Shown piece by piece: positions 545 to 17,979 of a stretch of DNA of 19,202 bases; position 1 is the stretch's first letter, and the number at the start of each line of letters is the position of its first letter. The DNA comes from a virus (taxonomy: Duplodnaviria > Heunggongvirae > Uroviricota > Caudoviricetes), in the IMG/VR virus record IMGVR_UViG_2526164689_000024. The stretch is one strand, 5' to 3'. A program made the position numbers and the translations under genes. The notes below the pieces were generated by a model. It made no database searches. It was not told the DNA's origin and worked only from the letters and a program-made list of their open reading frames with translations.

Positions 545-1663
545 TCAAACAACCAATTTAACCCATTCCTGACCACGAGTATCGTTATAACGATCGGTGG
601 TTGCCTGGACTTTATGTCCCAGTAATGTTTTTGTATCAATACCCTGCGCGCGGTACAGTCGTTCTGACAGGGAGCGTTGTTCATGAAATGTTGGCGGAGT
701 TTTTCCTGCTGGTGGAGTTATCCCAGCCAGATCCCGTGCTTTGGCAAAGTAGTCGCTCAGGTTGTCTTTACTCATCGGCTTTGGTTGTTTCTGGTGCCGA
801 CTATGGATTAGATATGGACTTAATATTCTGTCTCGGCACCCATCAATAACTTCTTTTAACGCTATCCCAATGGCATCACAGCGTAGTGTAAGCGGTAACG
901 CCAGACGCATTCCGGTTTTTCCCTGGGTGATATGCAAGTGTTCGTTCCACACATCTGAAAAACGCATGTGGCAAATGTCATCACGGCGCTGACCAGTAAC
1001 AATCGCAAGAAGCATTGCGTTACGGATAAAGTGTTTTTCAGGCGTTGCGTAGTAAATTTTTTGCCAGTCTTCCAGGGTGAGCCTGGCTCTGGTTACTTTA
1101 GGGATCGGTTTACGGGTAGCCTCCGGAGGATTCCATCCAGGAGGAACTTCCCCTGCATGCTGTGCTTCTTTATAAATATCAACCCATAATCCACGATTTA
1201 CTCTCGCTGTGCTGACCATGTCTTTATCCAGCCACTCATCCAGTATTAATGCAAAGTCTCTTACTTCCAGTTCTTTCAATGGGTGGTTTCCCAGACGGGA
1301 AACCAGGTATGCAGCCATTCGAGTTTTTTCTTTGTGAGTTGTAGCTGCAATATCTCCATTTTTCAGTCGCGTGTCCTGTATTTTCAGATATCGATCAACC
1401 CATGCCTTTAATCTGATACCCCGACGTTTTGTTGCTGACGGACTTTCATCAATTTTGCGCATGAAATATTCAGCTTCTGCTGCAGCTATTCGCTGATTGG
1501 CTGTGGAAGCGATTTTTTCTGCCTTACCTTTGTCTGTTCCGAGTCCGTGAAATTTTCCAGTCACAGGATTTTTATACTGGTAGTAAACTCTGCCAGTTCT
1601 GCGATCAAACTTTTCGTAAAGACCGGCTACGTCAGTGCTGTTTTTTCGTGGCCTCGGTGACAT
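545..1663 (-). CDS. int: lambda-family tyrosine integrase
   Basis: 372 aa; C-terminal catalytic region FHEQRSLSERLY and LLGHKVQATTDRYNDTRGQEW matches the His/Arg and His/Tyr boxes of lambda Int (HELRSLSARLY, LLGHK...QYRDDRG); 5' end overlaps xis by about 30 nt as in lambda. Confidence 0.9.
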   Translation of the reverse strand: MSPRPRKNSTDVAGLYEKFDRRTGRVYYQYKNPVTGKFHGLGTDKGKAEKIASTANQRIAAAEAEYFMRKIDESPSATKRRGIRLKAWVDRYLKIQDTRLKNGDIAATTHKEKTRMAAYLVSRLGNHPLKELEVRDFALILDEWLDKDMVSTARVNRGLWVDIYKEAQHAGEVPPGWNPPEATRKPIPKVTRARLTLEDWQKIYYATPEKHFIRNAMLLAIVTGQRRDDICHMRFSDVWNEHLHITQGKTGMRLALPLTLRCDAIGIALKEVIDGCRDRILSPYLIHSRHQKQPKPMSKDNLSDYFAKARDLAGITPPAGKTPPTFHEQRSLSERLYRAQGIDTKTLLGHKVQATTDRYNDTRGQEWVKLVV

Positions 1664-1901
1664 GAGTTAAAATCTCCTTCAGTGCATCATCATCGCCAGT
1701 ATGAATTTCCGGCGCAATTCCCGTTTCACCAGGCCCAACAAATACTGCTCGGCGATCTATCAGCCAACGCCCACGAATTTTTTGTGGTCTTGGAACGATG
1801 TATCCTAGTTTTCCGTATTTCACCAGGGTAGTGTTTGTTATTGGGAGACTGAACCGTTTTGGTTTCCACTCGTCGAGCGTTATCAGGTACTGTTCGCTCA
1901 T
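1632..1901 (-). CDS. xis: excisionase, lambda Xis family
   Basis: MSEQYLITLDEW...IVPRPQKIRGRWLIDRRAV aligns with lambda Xis MYLTLQEW...IFPPPVKDGREYLFHESAV; ATG at 1901 preferred, the track's GTG at 1910 is an alternative start; overlaps int start. Confidence 0.75.
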   Translation of the reverse strand: MSEQYLITLDEWKPKRFSLPITNTTLVKYGKLGYIVPRPQKIRGRWLIDRRAVFVGPGETGIAPEIHTGDDDALKEILTHVTEATKKQH

Positions 1902-1962
1902 GGCTATCACTCCGGAACGCGCCAGTTGCAGAATATCAACGACAACTGGCGACGGTTGAACA

Positions 1963-4506
1963 TTAAAAATCAGCCTGACTCGGGATCAGTTTTTGCCAGA
2001 TAACTGAAACGTATTTTGCCTGGTAACGGGCGTCATCAAGTGCATTATGGCGCTCACCTTCGAATGGAATAGCCGTTCTGGCATCGAAGTCTATGGCTTT
2101 CCCCAGCTCAACGATTGTGCGTACATCGCGATCGTTGTAGTAACGCCACGGGCAGGGGATCCCCTGCCGTTCGTATGAACGGCGCAAAATCGTGTTGTCG
2201 AAGTTGGCTCCATTTCCCCAGACCTGAACAAAAAATTCACCGGAGTTTTCGTCGATAAATTCCCGCAATTGTAACAGTGCATCATCTAACGGGATTTCAT
2301 CGGTCATAATGGCAGATTGCGCTTCGCGTGATTGCTTAAGCCACCATTTAATGGTGTCCCGATCAATGACTCCGCCAGCAGTTTCCAGATCGATAGTCTT
2401 ACTAAATTCCGGTCCCATATCTCCGGTTTGCGGATCGAAAAATATTGCACCTATTGAGATGATCGGGGCATCAGGATTTTTTCCCATGGTTTCAAGGTCG
2501 ATCATTAGATGGTCACACGTCCTGCTGGTGGATGTGATTTCACGATGACTGTTCACCTTAATTAAGAGATTTGCTGTCTCGCCTGTTTCATTATTGCCAT
2601 TGGCATGTTGATCGCCTTCGGTGCACTCCTTGTTCGGGAGTCCGGCACTTTCCATTTCCTCCGGATCTTTTTCCCGGGCTTCATCCTGGCTTTCTTCGTT
2701 GAATGTCTCCTGGTATGTTGCGTCGCCCATCACCGCGCCACAGTCAGGACAGTTGCCGCCGCCGGTCTGACCGCAGTCTGTGCAGACTTTTTCCGGTTCC
2801 TGTTGCGCTACTGGTTCAGGCTTTTTCGTTTCTGGCTCGTTTTGTTGCGCATTTGGACTGTGTTGTTCCGCTTTATGGCCTTTCTGTTCCGTTTCTTGCT
2901 GGTTATGGTTCACCGAATCGCGGGTTTCAATCCCCTTCACCCATTTTGGATCATTCGGGTCGCTAATCCCTTCAACAAATTCTCCGTGAGAAGCAGCCAG
3001 TAATTTATCTGCATCGACAGGATTTTTGGGTGGAATGTTTTTCCTGGCTTCATAGAGTTCTGCACGCAGTTTCTGATATTTCGCATCAACAGAATTTATC
3101 TGTGGCTGAGCATCCATCGACTGCGTGTCCTGATTATGTTCAGTTGTATCCGGTTCCACTGCTTCAGTCGTTGCCTGTTCATCTGCCATTGCGCCAGATG
3201 GCTGCGGTTTTTCTTCATCATCCTGTTTTCCTTCTTTTGTTACACGCTGCGGGATAGGGGCAGAGGAGCGACCGCAGGCAATATCCACGATTTCCGGATC
3301 AGGGTTGGCATGATCGGTTTCGGTCAGTACTTTGTTCAGATATTCGGTAACACGGTGGGGAGTAGCCTCGATACCAATTGGTGCTTCTTTCACGGACGCA
3401 ACTACTATCGCGCGGGAATAATCCAGGTGACCAGGCATGGCGATGAATTTGTCACGAAAAACAGAAAAGGGCGGCTTATTCTCTGAAACGATTTCTTCAA
3501 TGCGTTTGGCGTGTGCCGGATGTGGATTGTAAATATCGATGTCCATTGAACGGGCCAGAACGCCAGCGGCAACGTCACGTTCCACTGACGCATCATCGTG
3601 GACAAAACCTTCACCGCGATCGGTAAGAATTCCTCCGCCAGCATTAGCGCCGGACGGGGTGCGATTGATTTCAGATACGCAATTTCCCTTTGCCCACTCT
3701 TTTGTCAACAGCCCCTGATCAAGGTAGTCAGTCTTCATCCAGGTGGAAATGAACTTGTCGAATTCTGCCGGGCTGATACGGCGTGTTGTTGCGTGAGTGA
3801 ATGCCTTTTCCACCGAATGCGCCAGTCTTCCAAGATGATGGTTTGTCAGCTTATCCAGCTCAGGATGCGAACGTACTGCAGTAAGCAGGCTCTGTATGTT
3901 TCCATCTTCCATATCCATTTCGATGCGGATCACGTCCTTGCGTTGTTCTGGTGTGGCGTGATGTTTGTATTTCTCGTCGAACTCCTGACCAAAGAAGTAG
4001 AGGTGCAGGAAGCGATGGGTAAGACTCAGGGTGGAGACGGGGATTTCACATTCAGGGCAGTCATCGTTGCTGTCCGGGGATTCGCTTTTATCTGCGTTCT
4101 CTGTCTGAGAGTCACTTTGTTCATCGCAGTCACGGCTGACACCTGTAACAGCTTCGCCGCTGGTATTGTCAGTGCTGGCTGGTTTGTCCTGAACTGAGGG
4201 GGAAGGCGCTATAAATATCATTGTGATGCCATCTTCTCCGCCTTTTTCATAGCGGTTGCAGAATTCGGTATCAAACACACCTTCAGGCGGCAGGTCATTA
4301 ACAATGGGCAAATTCACGCGAACAGGTTTTTTGAAATCCTCTTCGTCAAATCCAGCATCGTCCATTGCGACAACACCCCGTGATATTGCAACCGATAATT
4401 TTTTTGCTGTGCGCCAGTAAAAACCGCCTTTAATCCCAAGGCGTTTTCTGACTTTGTCATTTTTGGCTTCGTAATACAGTGCAATTTCTTCTTTATCAGT
4501 GCTCAT
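1963..4506 (-). CDS. large early-left-operon protein with C-terminal DnaQ-like DEDDh 3'-5' exonuclease domain
   Basis: 847 aa; C-terminal motifs HLMIDLET (Exo I D-x-E), WGNGANFD (Exo II), H-x4-D in [11 protein letters not shown] (Exo III); internal [16 protein letters not shown] zinc-ribbon-like motif and long acidic/Gln-rich linkers; sits where lambdoid phages carry exo/recombination genes. Confidence 0.6.
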
Positions 4507-4598: not shown

Positions 4599-4793
4599 TT
4601 ATCCAGCCGGTATTTCGTTATTCAGGTACAGCGATACTTTGTTTAACGGGAGACATTCACCGGAAATTTTTTGCTCGTCTCTTGCCTGATGGCAGGATTC
4701 TTTACTGGCATAAATTCCGGTAATCACATTCTGTGATTCACCCGTTATAAGAAAAACCGTCATCACCAGTGCAAATGCTGAAGTCATTGACAT
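4599..4793 (-). CDS. ydfD: YdfD-like small protein with N-terminal signal/TM segment (Qin-type lysis protein family)
   Basis: 64 aa; MSMTSAFALVMTVFLITGES...NNEIPAG resembles recalled E. coli YdfD; immediately downstream of the dicB-like gene as in Qin. Confidence 0.55.
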   Translation of the reverse strand: MSMTSAFALVMTVFLITGESQNVITGIYASKESCHQARDEQKISGECLPLNKVSLYLNNEIPAG

Positions 4794-4972
4794 TCTCCGA
4801 AAATACCAAGTTCAAGAAGGGCAATTCTGGAGAGTATGGAATTATCATTGAGAAGATAAGGCTCATATTTTCTCATCTTAATGGCATCTTCAGTAAACTC
4901 CCGGTTACTGAGCAGAATACCAATATCAAAACACCCTTCAGACGTATTAACGTTTGGTAGTGACGTTTCCAT
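4784..4972 (-). CDS. dicB: DicB-like cell division inhibitor
   Basis: 62 aa; METSLPNVNTSEGCFDIGILLSNREFTEDAIKMRK matches the recalled DicB N-terminus (..LPNVNTSEGCFEIG....FTEDAINKRK); same length as K-12 DicB. Confidence 0.7.
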   Translation of the reverse strand: METSLPNVNTSEGCFDIGILLSNREFTEDAIKMRKYEPYLLNDNSILSRIALLELGIFGECQ

Positions 4973-5155
4973 TATCGCGTCCTCAACAATGAATTTTGTT
5001 GATGCGGCGCCTGGTGCCTCCAGGTGACGTTAACCAGTTAACAATTAACGTCGGAATACAGAAGGATGCCCGTTGCGCCCCGTAAAATACCACTTTACGG
5101 TTTTAACTGTTCCGCGTGCGCATAGCCGCATTCACCGCATCACAAAATTCACTTT

Positions 5156-5212
5156 AAAAAGGGCGGACATCAGTCAGCAACAAACCGATGCCGCCAATGG
5201 GTACACCACGAG
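5156..5212 (-). ncRNA. dicF: DicF-like small RNA (boundaries approximate)
   Basis: minus-strand RNA AACCUCGUGGUGUACCCAUUGGCGGCAUCGGUUUGUUGCUGACUGAUGUCCGCCCUUUUU ends in a GC stem plus U5; shares blocks UUGGCGG / AUC.GUUU / UGACUG / CCGCCCUUUUU with the K-12 DicF sequence as recalled; lies between the ydfA-like and dicB-like genes. Confidence 0.5.
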
Positions 5213-5361
5213 GTTGCACTGGCTACACAACCGGAAGCGCACGGTCGAAGAAATTTAACGACAAGACTTATATGCAAAGAAACCTCTCCGTGCGCTTTCG
5301 TGTTATGCCATGACTTTTCAGGGTACATTAACCTGTGGAAACCTGTTTTTACTGGCGCTAA

Positions 5362-5514
5362 TCAGTTGGCGTTTCTGGCTAACCAGCGATGCGCGCCAGC
5401 TTCGGTTTTAAACGTTTTACTTTTGGTATACGTCATCGCGGTAAACGTGCCGTCCTGATTGGGGAAGACGCCGCACACCAGAGATTCGTTGTTGCCAAGA
5501 TCGATGGTATCCAT
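5362..5514 (-). CDS. ydfA: YdfA-like small protein (DUF1391)
   Basis: 50-aa ORF not in the track (below its length cut-off), hand-translated: MDTIDLGNNESLVCGVFPNQDGTFTAMTYTKSKTFKTEAGAHRWLARNAN; SD GAGG 6 nt upstream; first gene downstream of the repressor as in Qin dicA-ydfA. Confidence 0.6.
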   Translation of the reverse strand: MDTIDLGNNESLVCGVFPNQDGTFTAMTYTKSKTFKTEAGAHRWLARNAN

Positions 5515-5689
5515 GTTGACCTCATTTCCCCTTAACGCCGGGTCGCGGAACTAAAAACCTGCTGCGCTGTTATACAAAGTGTTCCCGCCGTCATGTTCAT
5601 ACGCCTCGGGCTGGCTACTTAACCCCTGACCACTGCCGGGTAACTCGAAGTATTGCCCTGCATTCTGTGAAGCGGGGTGGGTTGTAATG

Positions 5690-5742
5690 AATATAAGAAT
5701 ATTTAGTTTTTCCGTCAAGTTGAATATAAATATTTTTAAGAT
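5690..5742 (-). promoter_or_regulatory. PL-like leftward promoter with adjacent operator-like motif
   Basis: minus strand -35 TTGACG (plus 5713-5718), 17-nt spacer, -10 TATATT (plus 5690-5695); 23-bp AT-rich motif at 5720-5742 nearly identical to one at 6449-6470. Confidence 0.35.
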
Positions 5743-5787
5743 AAAAGGCCGACAAAGCCGACCTCTGATTACAGGGCAAAGCGGGAG

Positions 5788-6432
5788 CTAGAGGCTGAAC
5801 TGAACACCTTTTGCTACAGCAACGATGTTACATTCCGGTGTAAGTAAGGATGATTGATAGCGTGGGTTAAGGGGGGCTAAGTACACGAGCTTTCCATCAA
5901 TAACTAATTTTTTTATAGTCATGGATGGTTCGTTTGTGAGTGGATCTGGGACTATTACTGCGACGATGCTACCATTTTTATATTTTTCGCCAGGCCTCAT
6001 GATCACTGTGGCTCCAACTGGAATGCTTGGGGACCCTGATGGATTGTGCATAGTATCATCAGGCATTGAAACGGCAAAATCTCCCTCCTTGACATCAAAG
6101 AATGTGGTGATCCTGTCGACATTTCCCATAGTTTTCTCTCCTTTTAATATTAGGAAAGAAATCGCTTCTCCCCAAGAAAGGTATGGGATTTGGATACCTG
6201 GATTTTTCTGCACAAGGGATGATTCAGGTGATGATACTCCATACAGGAGATAGGACTCAGTAGTGCCTAGTGCTAGGGCTAATTTACTAAGAGCTTTGCT
6301 ACCTGGTTCGTTTAGATCTTTCTCCCAGTATCCTATTGTTACCCCAGTTACGCCAGAAAGCTTGCCAAGTTCAACTTGGGTCAGACCTTTGTCTTTTCTG
6401 AGTTTCTTAAGCCTAATGCCAAGGCTTTCCAT
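5788..6432 (-). CDS. cI: CI-type phage repressor (N-terminal HTH_XRE plus C-terminal S24 LexA-like autopeptidase)
   Basis: 214 aa; HTH LTQVELGKLSGVTGVTIGYWEKDLNEP; C-terminal FAVSMPDDTMHNP (Ser nucleophile context) and MTIKKLV (Lys), parallel to lambda CI GNSM / FTFKKL; divergent from the cro-like gene. Confidence 0.9.
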   Translation of the reverse strand: MESLGIRLKKLRKDKGLTQVELGKLSGVTGVTIGYWEKDLNEPGSKALSKLALALGTTESYLLYGVSSPESSLVQKNPGIQIPYLSWGEAISFLILKGEKTMGNVDRITTFFDVKEGDFAVSMPDDTMHNPSGSPSIPVGATVIMRPGEKYKNGSIVAVIVPDPLTNEPSMTIKKLVIDGKLVYLAPLNPRYQSSLLTPECNIVAVAKGVQFSL

Positions 6433-6530
6433 TATTTTCTCCCGCGAATTGAATATAAATTATTTTAGATTGTATTGACCTAAAAAAATTACCCTTTAAT
6501 CTAAAAATACTTAGTTTTAAGGAGGGCGAA
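6433..6530. promoter_or_regulatory. divergent immunity control region (OR-like) with PR-like promoter
   Basis: 98-bp AT-rich intergenic region between cI and cro starts; rightward -35 TTGACC (6475-6480), about 16-nt spacer, -10 TAATCT, SD AAGGAGGG before cro ATG 6531; operator-like motif 6449-6470. Confidence 0.45.
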
Positions 6531-6758
6531 ATGCGAGTTGATGAACTTGTCCAGTTTTTTGGTTCTGTCCAAAGAGTCGCTGATTTTTATGGGGTAACCC
6601 GAGAAGCTATATACATGTGGCGTAAGCGTCCCGGCGAAATAGTTCCCAAGGGGAGGGCTGCTGAAGCAGTTGCATACTCCAAGGGAAAATTATCGTTGAA
6701 CCCAGAACTTTACAAAAAGAAGGATAACACCTCGAACGAAAGGAAAAATGATTCATGA
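6531..6758 (+). CDS. cro: Cro/DicC-like small HTH regulator
   Basis: 75 aa; FFGSVQRVADFYGVTREAIYMWRKRPGEIVPKGRAAEA resembles lambda Cro and recalled DicC; strong SD; divergent from the repressor. Confidence 0.75.
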   Translation: MRVDELVQFFGSVQRVADFYGVTREAIYMWRKRPGEIVPKGRAAEAVAYSKGKLSLNPELYKKKDNTSNERKNDS

Positions 6759-7180
6759 AAATCAAGCATGAACACATCCGCATGGCGATGAATGCCTGGG
6801 CGCATCCGGACGGCGAAAAAGTACCGGCTGCGAAAATTACCAAAGCGTATTTCGAGCTGGGGATGACGTTCCCGGAACTGTACGACGACAGTCATCCGGA
6901 AGCCCTGGCCCGTAATACCCAGAAAATTTTCCGTTGGCTGGATAAAGACACCCCTGATGCTGTTGAAAAAATTCAGGCTCTGTTACCAGCGATCGAAAAG
7001 GCGATGCCGCCTTTGCTGGTGGCCCGTATGCGCAGCCACAGTTCTGAGTATTACCGTGAGATCGTCGAACGGCGGGATCGGCTGGTGAAAGATGTCGACG
7101 ATTTTGTTGCGTCAGCGGTTGTTTTGTATGACCAGATGAATCGCGGCGGCCCGGCAGGAAATGCCGTGGTGATGCACTAA
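6755..7180 (+). CDS. YdaT-like protein (proposed CII-type regulator / toxic when overexpressed in Rac)
   Basis: 141 aa; N-terminus MKIKHEHI and length match recalled Rac YdaT; start overlaps cro stop (ATGA), implying translational coupling. Confidence 0.45.
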   Translation: MKIKHEHIRMAMNAWAHPDGEKVPAAKITKAYFELGMTFPELYDDSHPEALARNTQKIFRWLDKDTPDAVEKIQALLPAIEKAMPPLLVARMRSHSSEYYREIVERRDRLVKDVDDFVASAVVLYDQMNRGGPAGNAVVMH

Positions 7181-7202
7181 CTGCACGGTGTTCGGGGGTT
7201 TT

Positions 7203-8171
7203 ATGAGCAGCAAGCTTCATGGTCTTGTCTGGGAAGGATGCGCCTTCACCGGCATGATCTTATCCCGGGTGGCAGTGATGGCCCGTCTTGCAGACTACAG
7301 CAATGACGAGGGCGTGTCATGGCCTGCTATTGAAACTATCCGGCGTCAGATCGGTGCAAGAAGTGAATCCACCGTGAAATCGGCTATTGCAGAACTGGCG
7401 AAAGAGGGCTGGCTGACGAAGGAAGAGCGTAAGGTCGGTGGGCGTAATGTAAGCAATATCTATCGGCTTAATGTGGAAAAACTCGAAGCAGCTGCGGCGG
7501 CGGCGCGTGAGTCATATAAACCGAAAAGAAAAATTAGCCCGGCAAAAAATGACCCGTTAATAGTTGACCCGTCAAATATTGACCCCTCAACGGTTGACCC
7601 GTCAAATTTTGATGGATCAACGGTTGATAAAAAACTGCCGATTAGGGGGGCGATGATTGACCCCGATCCGTCAGTATTAAAACCTGATCCGTCAGATAAA
7701 AGATCTTCTTGTCCGGACCTTTCACTGCCGGACGAAAAACAATCATCACCAGTTGAGCGATTTCTGGAGAAACACCCGGATGCGCATACCTGGAATGTAC
7801 CGAAGCGACAGTGGGGTACCCGTGAGGATGTCGCCTGTGCGCAGTGGATTTGGGGACGGGTTGTGGCGTTGTATGAACAGGCCGCCAGTGATGATGGTGA
7901 GGTGTCACGCCCCCGAGAACCTAACTGGACGACCTGGGCGAATGATGTGCGCATGATGCGTATGCTGGATGGACGTAGTCACCGGCAGATTTGTGAAATG
8001 TTTGGGCGTGTCCAGCGGGATTCGTTCTGGGTAAAAAACATCATGAGTCCGGCAAAACTCCGGGAAAAATGGGATGAACTGGTTATCCGCCTGGGGCGTT
8101 CGCCCGCGCAGCGTTGCGTGAATCACATTTCTGAACCGGACACTGAAATACCGCCTGGATTCAGGGGGTGA
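7203..8171 (+). CDS. replication initiator, lambda O-like (N-terminal wHTH, iteron-containing gene)
   Basis: ATG at 7203 (track gives an upstream GTG at 7188); N-terminal HTH-like region ...VSWPAIETIRRQIGARSESTVKSAIAELAKEGWL; gene contains an iteron array that encodes VDPSNIDPSTVDPSNFDGSTVD; followed by a DnaC-like gene. Confidence 0.7.
   Translation: MSSKLHGLVWEGCAFTGMILSRVAVMARLADYSNDEGVSWPAIETIRRQIGARSESTVKSAIAELAKEGWLTKEERKVGGRNVSNIYRLNVEKLEAAAAAARESYKPKRKISPAKNDPLIVDPSNIDPSTVDPSNFDGSTVDKKLPIRGAMIDPDPSVLKPDPSDKRSSCPDLSLPDEKQSSPVERFLEKHPDAHTWNVPKRQWGTREDVACAQWIWGRVVALYEQAASDDGEVSRPREPNWTTWANDVRMMRMLDGRSHRQICEMFGRVQRDSFWVKNIMSPAKLREKWDELVIRLGRSPAQRCVNHISEPDTEIPPGFRG
7564..7694 (+). repeat. 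replication origin-like iteron array inside the O-like gene
   Basis: TTGACCCGTCAA (7564), TTGACCCCTCAA (7579), TTGACCCGTCAA (7594), TTGATGGATCAA (7609), partial TTGATAAAAAAC (7624), all at 15-bp spacing; then an A-rich stretch and two GATCCGTCAG copies 21 bp apart (7664, 7685). Confidence 0.7.
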
Positions 8172-12127: not shown

Positions 12128-12343
12128 GGTAAAAACGGTTTGCGGTAAAGCGAGAGTTAAGTAGAATTGCTGCGGGTGCTTGAGGCTATCTGCCTCAGGC
12201 ATGAACACCAAAAGGCAGATAGAGAAAAGCCCCAGTTAACATTACGCGTCCTGCAAGACGCTTAACATTAATCTGAGGCCCAATCTATGTCTCACAAATG
12301 TAGGTTAGCCTCTTACGTGCCGAAAGGCAAGGAGAAGCAGGCT

Positions 12344-12499
12344 ATGAAGCAGCAAAAGGCGATGTTAATCGCCCTGATCGTCATCTGTTTAACCGTCATA
12401 GTGACGGCACTGGTAACGAGGAAAGACCTCTGCGAGGTACGAATCCGAACCGGCCAGACGGAGGTCGCTGTCTTCACAGCTTACGAACCTGAGGAGTAA
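12344..12499 (+). CDS. hokD: Hok/Gef-family type I toxin (HokD/RelF-like)
   Basis: 51 aa MKQQKAMLIALIVICLTVIVTALVTRKDLCEVRIRTGQTEVAVFTAYEPEE, matches recalled K-12 HokD; an in-frame upstream ATG at 12287 would give 70 aa; leader contains a 10-bp inverted repeat. Confidence 0.8.
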   Translation: MKQQKAMLIALIVICLTVIVTALVTRKDLCEVRIRTGQTEVAVFTAYEPEE

Positions 12500-12567
12500 G
12501 AGACCCGGCGGGGGAGAAATCCCTCGCCACCGCTGATGTGTCAGGCATCCTCAACGCACCCGCACTT

Positions 12568-16676: not shown

Positions 16677-16752
16677 CGGCCCTTTAGCTCAGTGGTGAGA
16701 GCGAGCGACTCATAATCGCCAGGTCGCTGGTTCAAATCCAGCAAGGGCCACC
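16677..16752 (+). tRNA. tRNA-Ile2-like (anticodon CAT, probably lysidine-modified; Met cannot be excluded)
   Basis: cloverleaf parsed by hand: acceptor GGCCCTT/AAGGGCC, D-arm GCTC-AGTGGTGA-GAGC, anticodon loop CTCATAA, T-arm GCTGG-TTCAAAT-CCAGC, CCA encoded; very similar to recalled E. coli ileX. Confidence 0.8.
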
Positions 16753-16853: not shown

Positions 16854-16930
16854 GCGTTGTTAGCTCAGCCGGACAGAGCAATTGCCTTCTAAGCAATCGG
16901 TCAGTGGTTCGACTCCACTACAACGCGCCA
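16854..16930 (+). tRNA. tRNA-Arg (anticodon TCT, reads AGA/AGG)
   Basis: cloverleaf parsed by hand: acceptor GCGTTGT/ACAACGC, D-arm GCTC...GAGC, anticodon stem ATTGC/GCAAT with loop CTTCTAA, T-arm AGTGG-TTCGACT-CCACT, CCA encoded. Confidence 0.8.
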
Positions 16931-17695: not shown

Positions 17696-17862
17696 TTTTT
17701 TTGTTTGCTGTTTATTAAAAACACTTCTGCATGGTGAATCCCCCTGTGCGGAGGGGCGATCAGCAACCAGGTATATGGGATAATCGCGGATTTAGGTGCT
17801 GATACTGAATTCACCGGGAGGCACCCGGCACCATACAAGAAAAAGAATGTGCATGCAAACAT

Positions 17863-17886
17863 GCCCCTCTCCGGAGGGGCTTTTTT
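17863..17886 (+). terminator. strong rho-independent terminator
   Basis: GCCCCTC-tccg-GAGGGGC 7-bp GC-rich stem followed by T6. Confidence 0.8.
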
Positions 17887-17979
17887 ATGGGTAAAAAATG
17901 CCCGAATGGGTTCGGGCAATAGCATGAGATACTGATATTGTTGTGTTGTTATCGTGTGGATTTTAACCAGGGTTTATCA

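Follow-up and report, generated by a model that had tools for sequence, protein, structure and literature searches.

The window analysed here is a stretch of 19,202 nucleotides from a virus of the class Caudoviricetes (IMG/VR record IMGVR_UViG_2526164689_000024). It carries a lambdoid prophage which, in the Escherichia coli strain that it matches at 100% identity (O111:H11 strain 8D), adjoins potC/potD. We studied one prophage gene of this window, located on the minus strand at 1963..4506, which consists of 847 codons and a stop and has an ATG start preceded, 7 nucleotides (nt) 5', by a GAGG Shine-Dalgarno sequence. RefSeq (PGAP) names its product “exonuclease” (WP_000102185.1). A sequence-only reading of the same DNA had pointed to this open reading frame (ORF) without stating its strand, and the ORF is indeed real from ATG to stop. 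By its sequence, the product joins the N-terminal region of RecE (exonuclease VIII of the Rac prophage of K-12) to a DEDDh exonuclease domain that stands in place of the RecE nuclease. It is a RecE-family protein whose nuclease “head” is of another kind, not a new system. The parts of the gene, in the order of the protein after the entry for the whole, are the following:

1963..4506, minus strand: whole coding sequence, 847 residues plus stop.
4198..4506, minus strand: D1, an alpha/beta domain, residues 1–103 (AlphaFold2 predicted local distance difference test score, pLDDT, 79–98; ratio of nonsynonymous to synonymous substitution rates, dN/dS, 0.12 relative to locus L007).
4057..4197, minus strand: linker 1, residues 104–150, disordered and rich in Asp, Glu and Ser (pLDDT 40–50, composition).
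3232..4056, minus strand: D2, an all-alpha domain, residues 151–425 (about 85–90% identical to RecE from residue 264).
3097..3231, minus strand: linker 2, residues 426–470, acidic and disordered (composition, AlphaFold2).
2932..3096, minus strand: helical hairpin, residues 471–525, with a conserved motif at its end (helices 473–489 and 499–506 in the AlphaFold2 model).
2740..2784, minus strand: putative zinc ribbon, C575xxC578-x7-C586xxC589 (the four Cys are kept in RecE).
2530..2736, minus strand: linker 3, residues 591–659, acidic and disordered, holding the end of the recE homology at residue ~649.
1966..2529, minus strand: DEDDh 3'–5' exonuclease head, residues 660–847, DexA/Rv2179c-like (PF16473, match to PDB 8KEL, alignments).
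2561..3737, minus strand: DNA homology to K-12 Rac recE (79.7%), with a breakpoint at nt ~2561, i.e. residue ~649.

The N-terminal two thirds of the protein, hereafter the scaffold, align with RecE over residues 58–649 (RecE 50–591; 56% identity overall by BLASTP). Identity reaches ~85–90% from residue 264 on, hairpin and all four ribbon Cys included. The Pfam family PF06630 (Exonuc_VIII) matches residues 56–196 (E = 1.3e-12) and the NCBIfam profile PRK09709 (exodeoxyribonuclease VIII) covers residues 1–649 with its positions 1–602 of 877, at a score of 870 bits, below the equivalog cutoff of 1269. The BLASTP alignment stops at RecE residue 591, short of the PD-(D/E)XK nuclease domain (~600–866). 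The protein thus has the N-terminal region of a RecE and lacks its C-terminal PD-(D/E)XK 5'–3' exonuclease domain. We assign the scaffold, from these alignments and profiles, to the RecE N-terminal type. The two proteins share D1, D2, hairpin, ribbon and acidic linkers over the ~590 N-terminal residues of RecE, and both genes lie beside xis/int in a lambdoid prophage; they differ in that RecE carries a 5'–3' double-stranded DNA exonuclease where the window protein has a DEDDh 3'–5' exonuclease.

The sequence-only reading had considered only the last ~190 residues recognisable and the first ~650 unassigned; neither statement survives these matches. It had also held that a match of the N-terminal region to a well-characterised recombination or replication protein family would count against it, and the RecE match is formally of that kind, for the family though not for function. 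The other structural claims of that reading agree with our results: a C-terminal DEDDh exonuclease, a CxxC...CxxC ribbon (its interval is exactly that of C575–C589), at least two globular N-terminal segments, and acidic linkers. The profile searches by domain and the structure prediction that it proposed gave a name to the scaffold family and models of two domains, and left D1 and D2 with no structural relative found.

The AlphaFold2 model covers residues 1–660 and was built from a 100-sequence alignment. It contains two confident domains, residues 1–103 and 151–425 (pLDDT mostly >90). The segments with pLDDT <50 (residues 104–150, 428–471, 526–572 and 591–660) are mostly Asp/Glu-rich; Asp and Glu together make up 0.27–0.37 of the residues per 30-residue window over 121–165, 421–465 and 586–645. 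The conserved motifs of D2 are DRG..EW, T.SG..AGGG..TDR, MDFDIY, RAKEI, PGiLDYSRA and LTE.DH. The predicted ribbon has low model confidence (53–62); its two CxxC knuckles are kept in RecE and in the sibling protein of the Qin prophage described below, as expected of a zinc ribbon, and zinc binding is putative. The hairpin is likewise common to RecE and to this sibling.

For the head, PF16473 (Rv2179c-like) matches residues 666–837 with E = 3e-67 and 226.2 bits, against a curated cutoff of 27, over profile positions 2–177 of 177. All the motifs of the DEDDh superfamily are present (Exo I D-x-E, Exo II D, Exo III H-x4-D). They supply a catalytic pentad made of D670 and E672 (in MIDLET), D770 (in NFD), H820 and D825 (in HNALDD); since the pentad is complete the head would be metal-dependent. 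Among solved structures, the sequence searches found as relatives only PDB 8KEL and 8KEN, exodeoxyribonucleases of 227 residues (E = 1.5e-6 with a single-sequence query). We take 8KEL as DexA of phage T4, as in T4-type phage genomes the tblastn match of the head falls on dexA. A profile search scores the DexA chains at 8e-64, a value which is circular because the alignment behind the profile includes T4 DexA itself. The five catalytic residues align with D7, E9, D119, H186 and D191 of DexA, and the two proteins share the WW.QS helix motif; identity over the domain is 26–32%. DexA is nevertheless a standalone protein with extra loops, while the window protein has a scaffold of 650 residues. By tblastn, 1614 of 50,697 phage records have the head domain; in most of these it is a standalone gene, and only ~24 have the close lambdoid form. 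The neighbours of two standalone homologues (in Providencia PSTCR9 and Pseudomonas LKO4) are hypothetical proteins only, and hence uninformative.

Rv2179c of Mycobacterium tuberculosis, the founder of PF16473 and thus in the same Pfam family as the head, is a standalone bacterial exoribonuclease. The head could act as Rv2179c or oligoribonuclease do, trimming RNA 3' ends or short oligonucleotides, with possible roles in the turnover of small RNAs (sRNAs) or of transcripts from host or phage, and in clearing linear oligonucleotide signals. The best Pfam model is indeed entitled “3'-5' exoribonuclease Rv2179c-like”, close homologues are often called “3'-5' exoribonuclease” in RefSeq, and the DexA dimer has been overlaid on human REXO2 (PMC12153337). 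But the family name derives from a single characterised member, and the sole solved relative by sequence is a DNase, DexA. The PDB sequence searches with the head brought up no chain of Rv2179c, so that the relationship to Rv2179c is distant. The scaffold, moreover, is otherwise joined to DNA nucleases and annealases, as described below. We therefore regard an RNA substrate as quite unlikely.

The gene neighbourhood is as follows:

4599..4972, minus strand: upstream genes, ydfD-like (DUF1482, 4599–4787) and dicB (4784–4972), co-oriented with the exonuclease gene, in the gene order of Qin.
545..1901, minus strand: downstream genes, excisionase (1632–1901) and integrase (545–1663), co-oriented.

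From the repressor gene (5788–6432) through int every gene has the same orientation. In the leftward early operon the recombination slot lies between dicB/ydfD and xis/int, and the exonuclease gene fills it. In Rac, recE is followed by recT, ralR and rcbA; the window gene is accompanied by none of these. There is no recT between the exonuclease gene and xis/int, a tblastn of RecT on the whole window gave zero matches, and no Bet, RecT or Erf gene is among the PGAP names in the window. Nor is there a spare ORF that could house one: in the interval from int to the repressor gene the largest other minus-strand ORF has 92 residues and is the excisionase, and the next one (79 residues) is nested in the 1963–4506 ORF. 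The sequence-only reading was thus right that no single-strand annealing protein (SSAP) accompanies the gene.

Between dicB and xis the minus strand contains a single terminator-like site, at 4443–4425, within the exonuclease ORF; the Rfam scan revealed no RNA element within the gene. Given this single site and the shared orientation with dicB, ydfD, xis and int, expression of the exonuclease gene is probably confined to prophage induction. Further upstream, the minus strand at 5150–5200 shares 83% identity with K-12 Qin, in a stretch extending from the 3'-terminal 40 nt of dicF through dicB. This dicF-dicB-like region has a terminator-like hairpin at 5192–5166 (minus strand), and DicF has no Rfam match at the gathering threshold in the window.

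We then considered ydfE of K-12 Qin, of which the window gene had been proposed to be the intact form. The 50 nt 5' of ydfE and of the window gene are conserved, and both genes follow dicB and ydfD. The proteins themselves show no direct similarity by BLASTP. At the rspB-adjacent Qin site of strain 28A18CPO003A lies an intact gene for an 823-residue “3'-5' exonuclease” (WP_000048286.1), which matches ydfE at 98% identity over its first 256 residues. Only 256 of the 306 annotated residues of ydfE (L003 7079–7999) match; the rest runs into IS2E, from L003 7844. The 823-residue protein is also ~90% or more identical to the window protein over residues ~497–847 of the latter, and its head has 186 of 188 residues as in the window, with no synonymous differences in 188 codons. 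Like the window protein, it occupies the slot dicB, ydfD, exonuclease, xis, int and has the hairpin end and the zinc ribbon. Unlike it, its first ~470 residues have only profile-level similarity to the RecE-type scaffold (hhalign 99.5%, E = 7e-23, 16% identity), i.e. that of a remote homologue, and lack the Gly-rich AGGG..TDR loop of D2. Since the intact allele at the Qin site combines a ydfE-like N-terminus with a near-identical head, ydfE is the 5' remnant, truncated by IS2, of a sibling allele. The earlier proposal therefore holds in that ydfE is a truncated relative, and fails in that it is not a remnant of the window allele.

To which other domains is the scaffold joined? A HMMER scan of residues 1–660 against 1.84 billion representative proteins retrieved relatives in 226 clusters; with just this number the scaffold family is narrow. 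Single-linkage grouping by BLAST of the unassigned C-terminal tails collapsed to one group, and domain maps by phmmer, made for each domain in the best 150 of the 226 relatives, were used instead. In these relatives the scaffold takes the form D1-D2, with hairpin and ribbon present or not. The head is of the DEDDh type in at least 16 representatives and of the RecE nuclease type in at least 20. In one representative (P0124, 703 residues) it is RecT itself (Pfam RecT, E = 1e-42); here the scaffold is joined straight to RecT, as though the nuclease domain of RecE had been lost.

A third kind of head is present in seven representatives (P0126, P0145, P0185, P0196, P0203, P0214 and P0246) and displays the motif DGEA.KKSLTDA.KKALS.LGF.AD...GLYD. 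It matches Pfam Rad52_Rad22 below threshold (E = 0.0026), and we consider it, with moderate confidence, a probable Rad52-type annealase. PHROGs 2489 and 7838 call it “exonuclease”, by name transfer only. In L008 and L009 the gene with this head (5001–7445) is followed by a Sipho_Gp157 gene and occupies the slot from the immunity region to int. A fourth head of ~250 residues (P0173, P0198, P0212, P0240 and P0250) has no Pfam match and bears the motifs SP.FSD.EIH.VATTILD.WSD and LTY.QQLT.AA.QGLCANP. The fusion to a DEDDh head is kept in relatives with as little as 30% identity in the scaffold. That one scaffold comes with either nucleases or annealases ties it to DNA-end processing, and the occurrence of at least four different DNA-end heads argues for a role of the scaffold at DNA ends that is independent of the head.

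Lambdoid prophages are highly mosaic, dS among the segments of this gene ranges from ~0 to ~2, and truncated copies are known, namely ydfE and several short PHROG families. The protein might thus be an accidental recE::exonuclease fusion drifting in defective prophages. The distribution of the gene and the selection acting on it are opposed to this. The segment 1963–2760 (head, linker and ribbon) is found in 4066 of 5426 complete E. coli genomes at a coverage of at least 80%, with a median of 2 copies per genome and a maximum of 9; in K-12-type strains it finds just a short match to recE. The N-terminal allele of the window itself (3016–4506, same coverage) is restricted to 107 genomes, but the intact protein of 814–847 residues falls into hundreds of sequence clusters, of which one was seen on 989 contigs. 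The combination PF06630 plus PF16473 is precomputed in all 120 closest protein clusters, among the matches listed, which also carry the RefSeq names “exonuclease”, “3'-5' exoribonuclease” and “exodeoxyribonuclease VIII”. We found no paper that discusses the window protein.

All folded segments have a dN/dS well below 1: 0.12 for D1 and 0.38 for D2 relative to L007, 0.14 for the conserved half of D2 relative to recE, and 0.15–0.22 for the hairpin-ribbon region. Most comparisons of the linkers give higher values (0.29–1.35). The folded segments of the scaffold are thus under purifying selection. With the pentad intact and the same fusion present in the distant relatives mentioned above, a functionless mosaic is already disfavoured, and we consider it very improbable.

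The head segment has a distinct history. Its DNA (1966–2529, 564 nt) differs from that of L006 and L007 by 0–1 synonymous changes in 188 codons, while dS in the linker and hairpin-ribbon segments next to it is 0.5–0.96 in the same comparisons. The homology with L006 is restricted to 1919–3015 of the window, and prophages that share the near-identical head differ in int/xis and in the scaffold. A near-identical head among diverged neighbours points to recent spread or to homogenisation by recombination; the head segment looks like a mosaic “linker” recently swept or gene-converted.

A defence function has to be weighed against this background, since a DexA homologue of E. coli has been implicated in such a role. 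A study of 2025 described the DNA activities of DexA and proposed that a standalone E. coli homologue, EcD (“HREX”, HAK9828821.1), is an anti-T4 nuclease that reads 5-hydroxymethylcytosine (5hmC); EcD is reported there to cut 5hmC DNA and to protect from T4 (PMC12153337). The window head is, like EcD, a DexA-family DEDDh exonuclease encoded by E. coli. It could accordingly degrade incoming phage DNA, e.g. that of T-even phages with modified cytosine, in defence or superinfection exclusion. The extreme prevalence of the head in E. coli prophages would suit such a role, and PADLOC gives a weak match, to a generic CRISPR-associated DEDDh model (E = 1.6e-5), with no other match in the defence library.

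The residues linked to 5hmC tell otherwise. Trp152 of DexA corresponds to Y789, at a position that is variable among relatives (Y, W, H, V or R), and the loop with Asp169 is absent from the window head. Asp90, a residue of the DexA tetramer that is replaced by Ala in EcD, is retained as D742. The head thus has neither the equivalents of Trp152 and Asp169, the proposed readers of 5hmC, nor the loss of Asp90 seen in EcD. EcD is moreover a short standalone protein that, according to its primers, starts with MIDTET and ends with TIPETY, with no fusion to a scaffold, and the scaffold of the window protein also bears recombination heads. The gene would, besides, lie in the repressed early-left operon and not in a moron position, and expression probably restricted to induction is a mild argument against a constitutive defence role. 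Taken together we consider a defence nuclease rather unlikely.

The reading that we put forward, and to which we give about an even chance, is that the head processes DNA 3' ends while tethered by the RecE-type scaffold. The protein would be a “beads-on-a-string” early protein of the lambdoid prophage. Its scaffold would bring the head to a common site, which could be DNA ends or else a partner from host or phage; there the head would trim 3' ends, be they overhangs, flaps or blunt ends. This trimming may take place during phage recombination, the processing of replication intermediates or the widening of gaps, comparable to the part of DexA in the repair of double-strand breaks in T4.

DEDDh enzymes are 3'–5' exonucleases, and their polarity is opposite to the 5'–3' resection expected of a RecE-like enzyme. 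With this opposite polarity and no annealase partner, the window protein would not do the work of RecE/RecT in single-strand annealing. Three points weigh against 3'-end processing in phage recombination. The 3'–5' single-stranded DNA exonuclease ExoI lowers RecET and Red recombination 65–70 fold (PMC13048471), so that a 3'–5' head sits oddly with classical annealing recombination. In the four DEDDh-type loci that we inspected (the window, L005, L006 and L007), annotation, and in the window RecT tblastn as well, gave no SSAP gene near the exonuclease gene, as there would be in a two-component recombinase. And PF16473 is, as seen above, named after an exoribonuclease.

The effect of ExoI can also be read the other way: as a 3'–5' exonuclease removes the substrates of annealing recombination (PMC13048471), the protein might destroy 3' tails or nascent 3' ends of host or competing DNA. 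RecA loading, the SOS response or rival recombination could be weakened in this way, or host DNA could be exploited as a source of nucleotides, a role that DexA has in T4; the acidic linkers could, judging speculatively from their composition, mimic DNA. Temperate lambdoid phages are not known to degrade host DNA, and the scaffold is common to pro-recombination heads. We consider this anti-host role improbable.

Other features of the window lie apart from the exonuclease gene. They comprise the STnc100 sRNA (Rfam, 17700–17892, plus strand), abutted by the anti-GcvB sRNA AgvB (17893–17954, minus strand), and a hok/sok type I toxin-antitoxin module at 12174–12500 (Rfam sok 12174–12349, hokD annotation 12345–12500). 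Two prophage tRNA genes (16678–16750 and 16854–16927, for Ile and Arg according to PGAP) are located downstream of a DNA methyltransferase gene.

Returning to the scaffold that would tether the 3'-end-processing head, its diverse partners raise a broader idea, which we advance tentatively as a somewhat unlikely one: the RecE-type N-terminus may be an autonomous module, a universal platform for plug-in DNA-end enzymes in lambdoid phages. Its D2 domain, for which no structural relative was found, has a Gly-rich/TDR loop that looks invariant. Such a platform might serve to hold DNA ends or to bind a factor of the host, and might even be catalytic itself. The nuclease domain of RecE can replace the whole protein, the full-length form being better at linear-linear (end-to-end) recombination (PMC11611040). 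RecE/RecT is a workhorse of recombineering, and two thirds of RecE are functionally unexplained though they improve linear-linear recombination. If the platform idea is correct, the natural head swaps would give an experimental handle on the role of the first 600 residues of RecE, as ready-made chimeras for probing the scaffold, and the DEDDh version, which about three quarters of the complete E. coli genomes contain, would represent an annealase-free route of 3'-end processing.

Independently of this idea, the annotation of K-12 ydfE is clarified as that of a truncated exonuclease gene. The DEDDh version is among the commonest prophage genes of E. coli, enterohaemorrhagic strains with up to nine copies per genome included. 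Even a modest role of its product would thus already be widely relevant, to prophage recombination and mosaicism, to induction and to conflict between phages.

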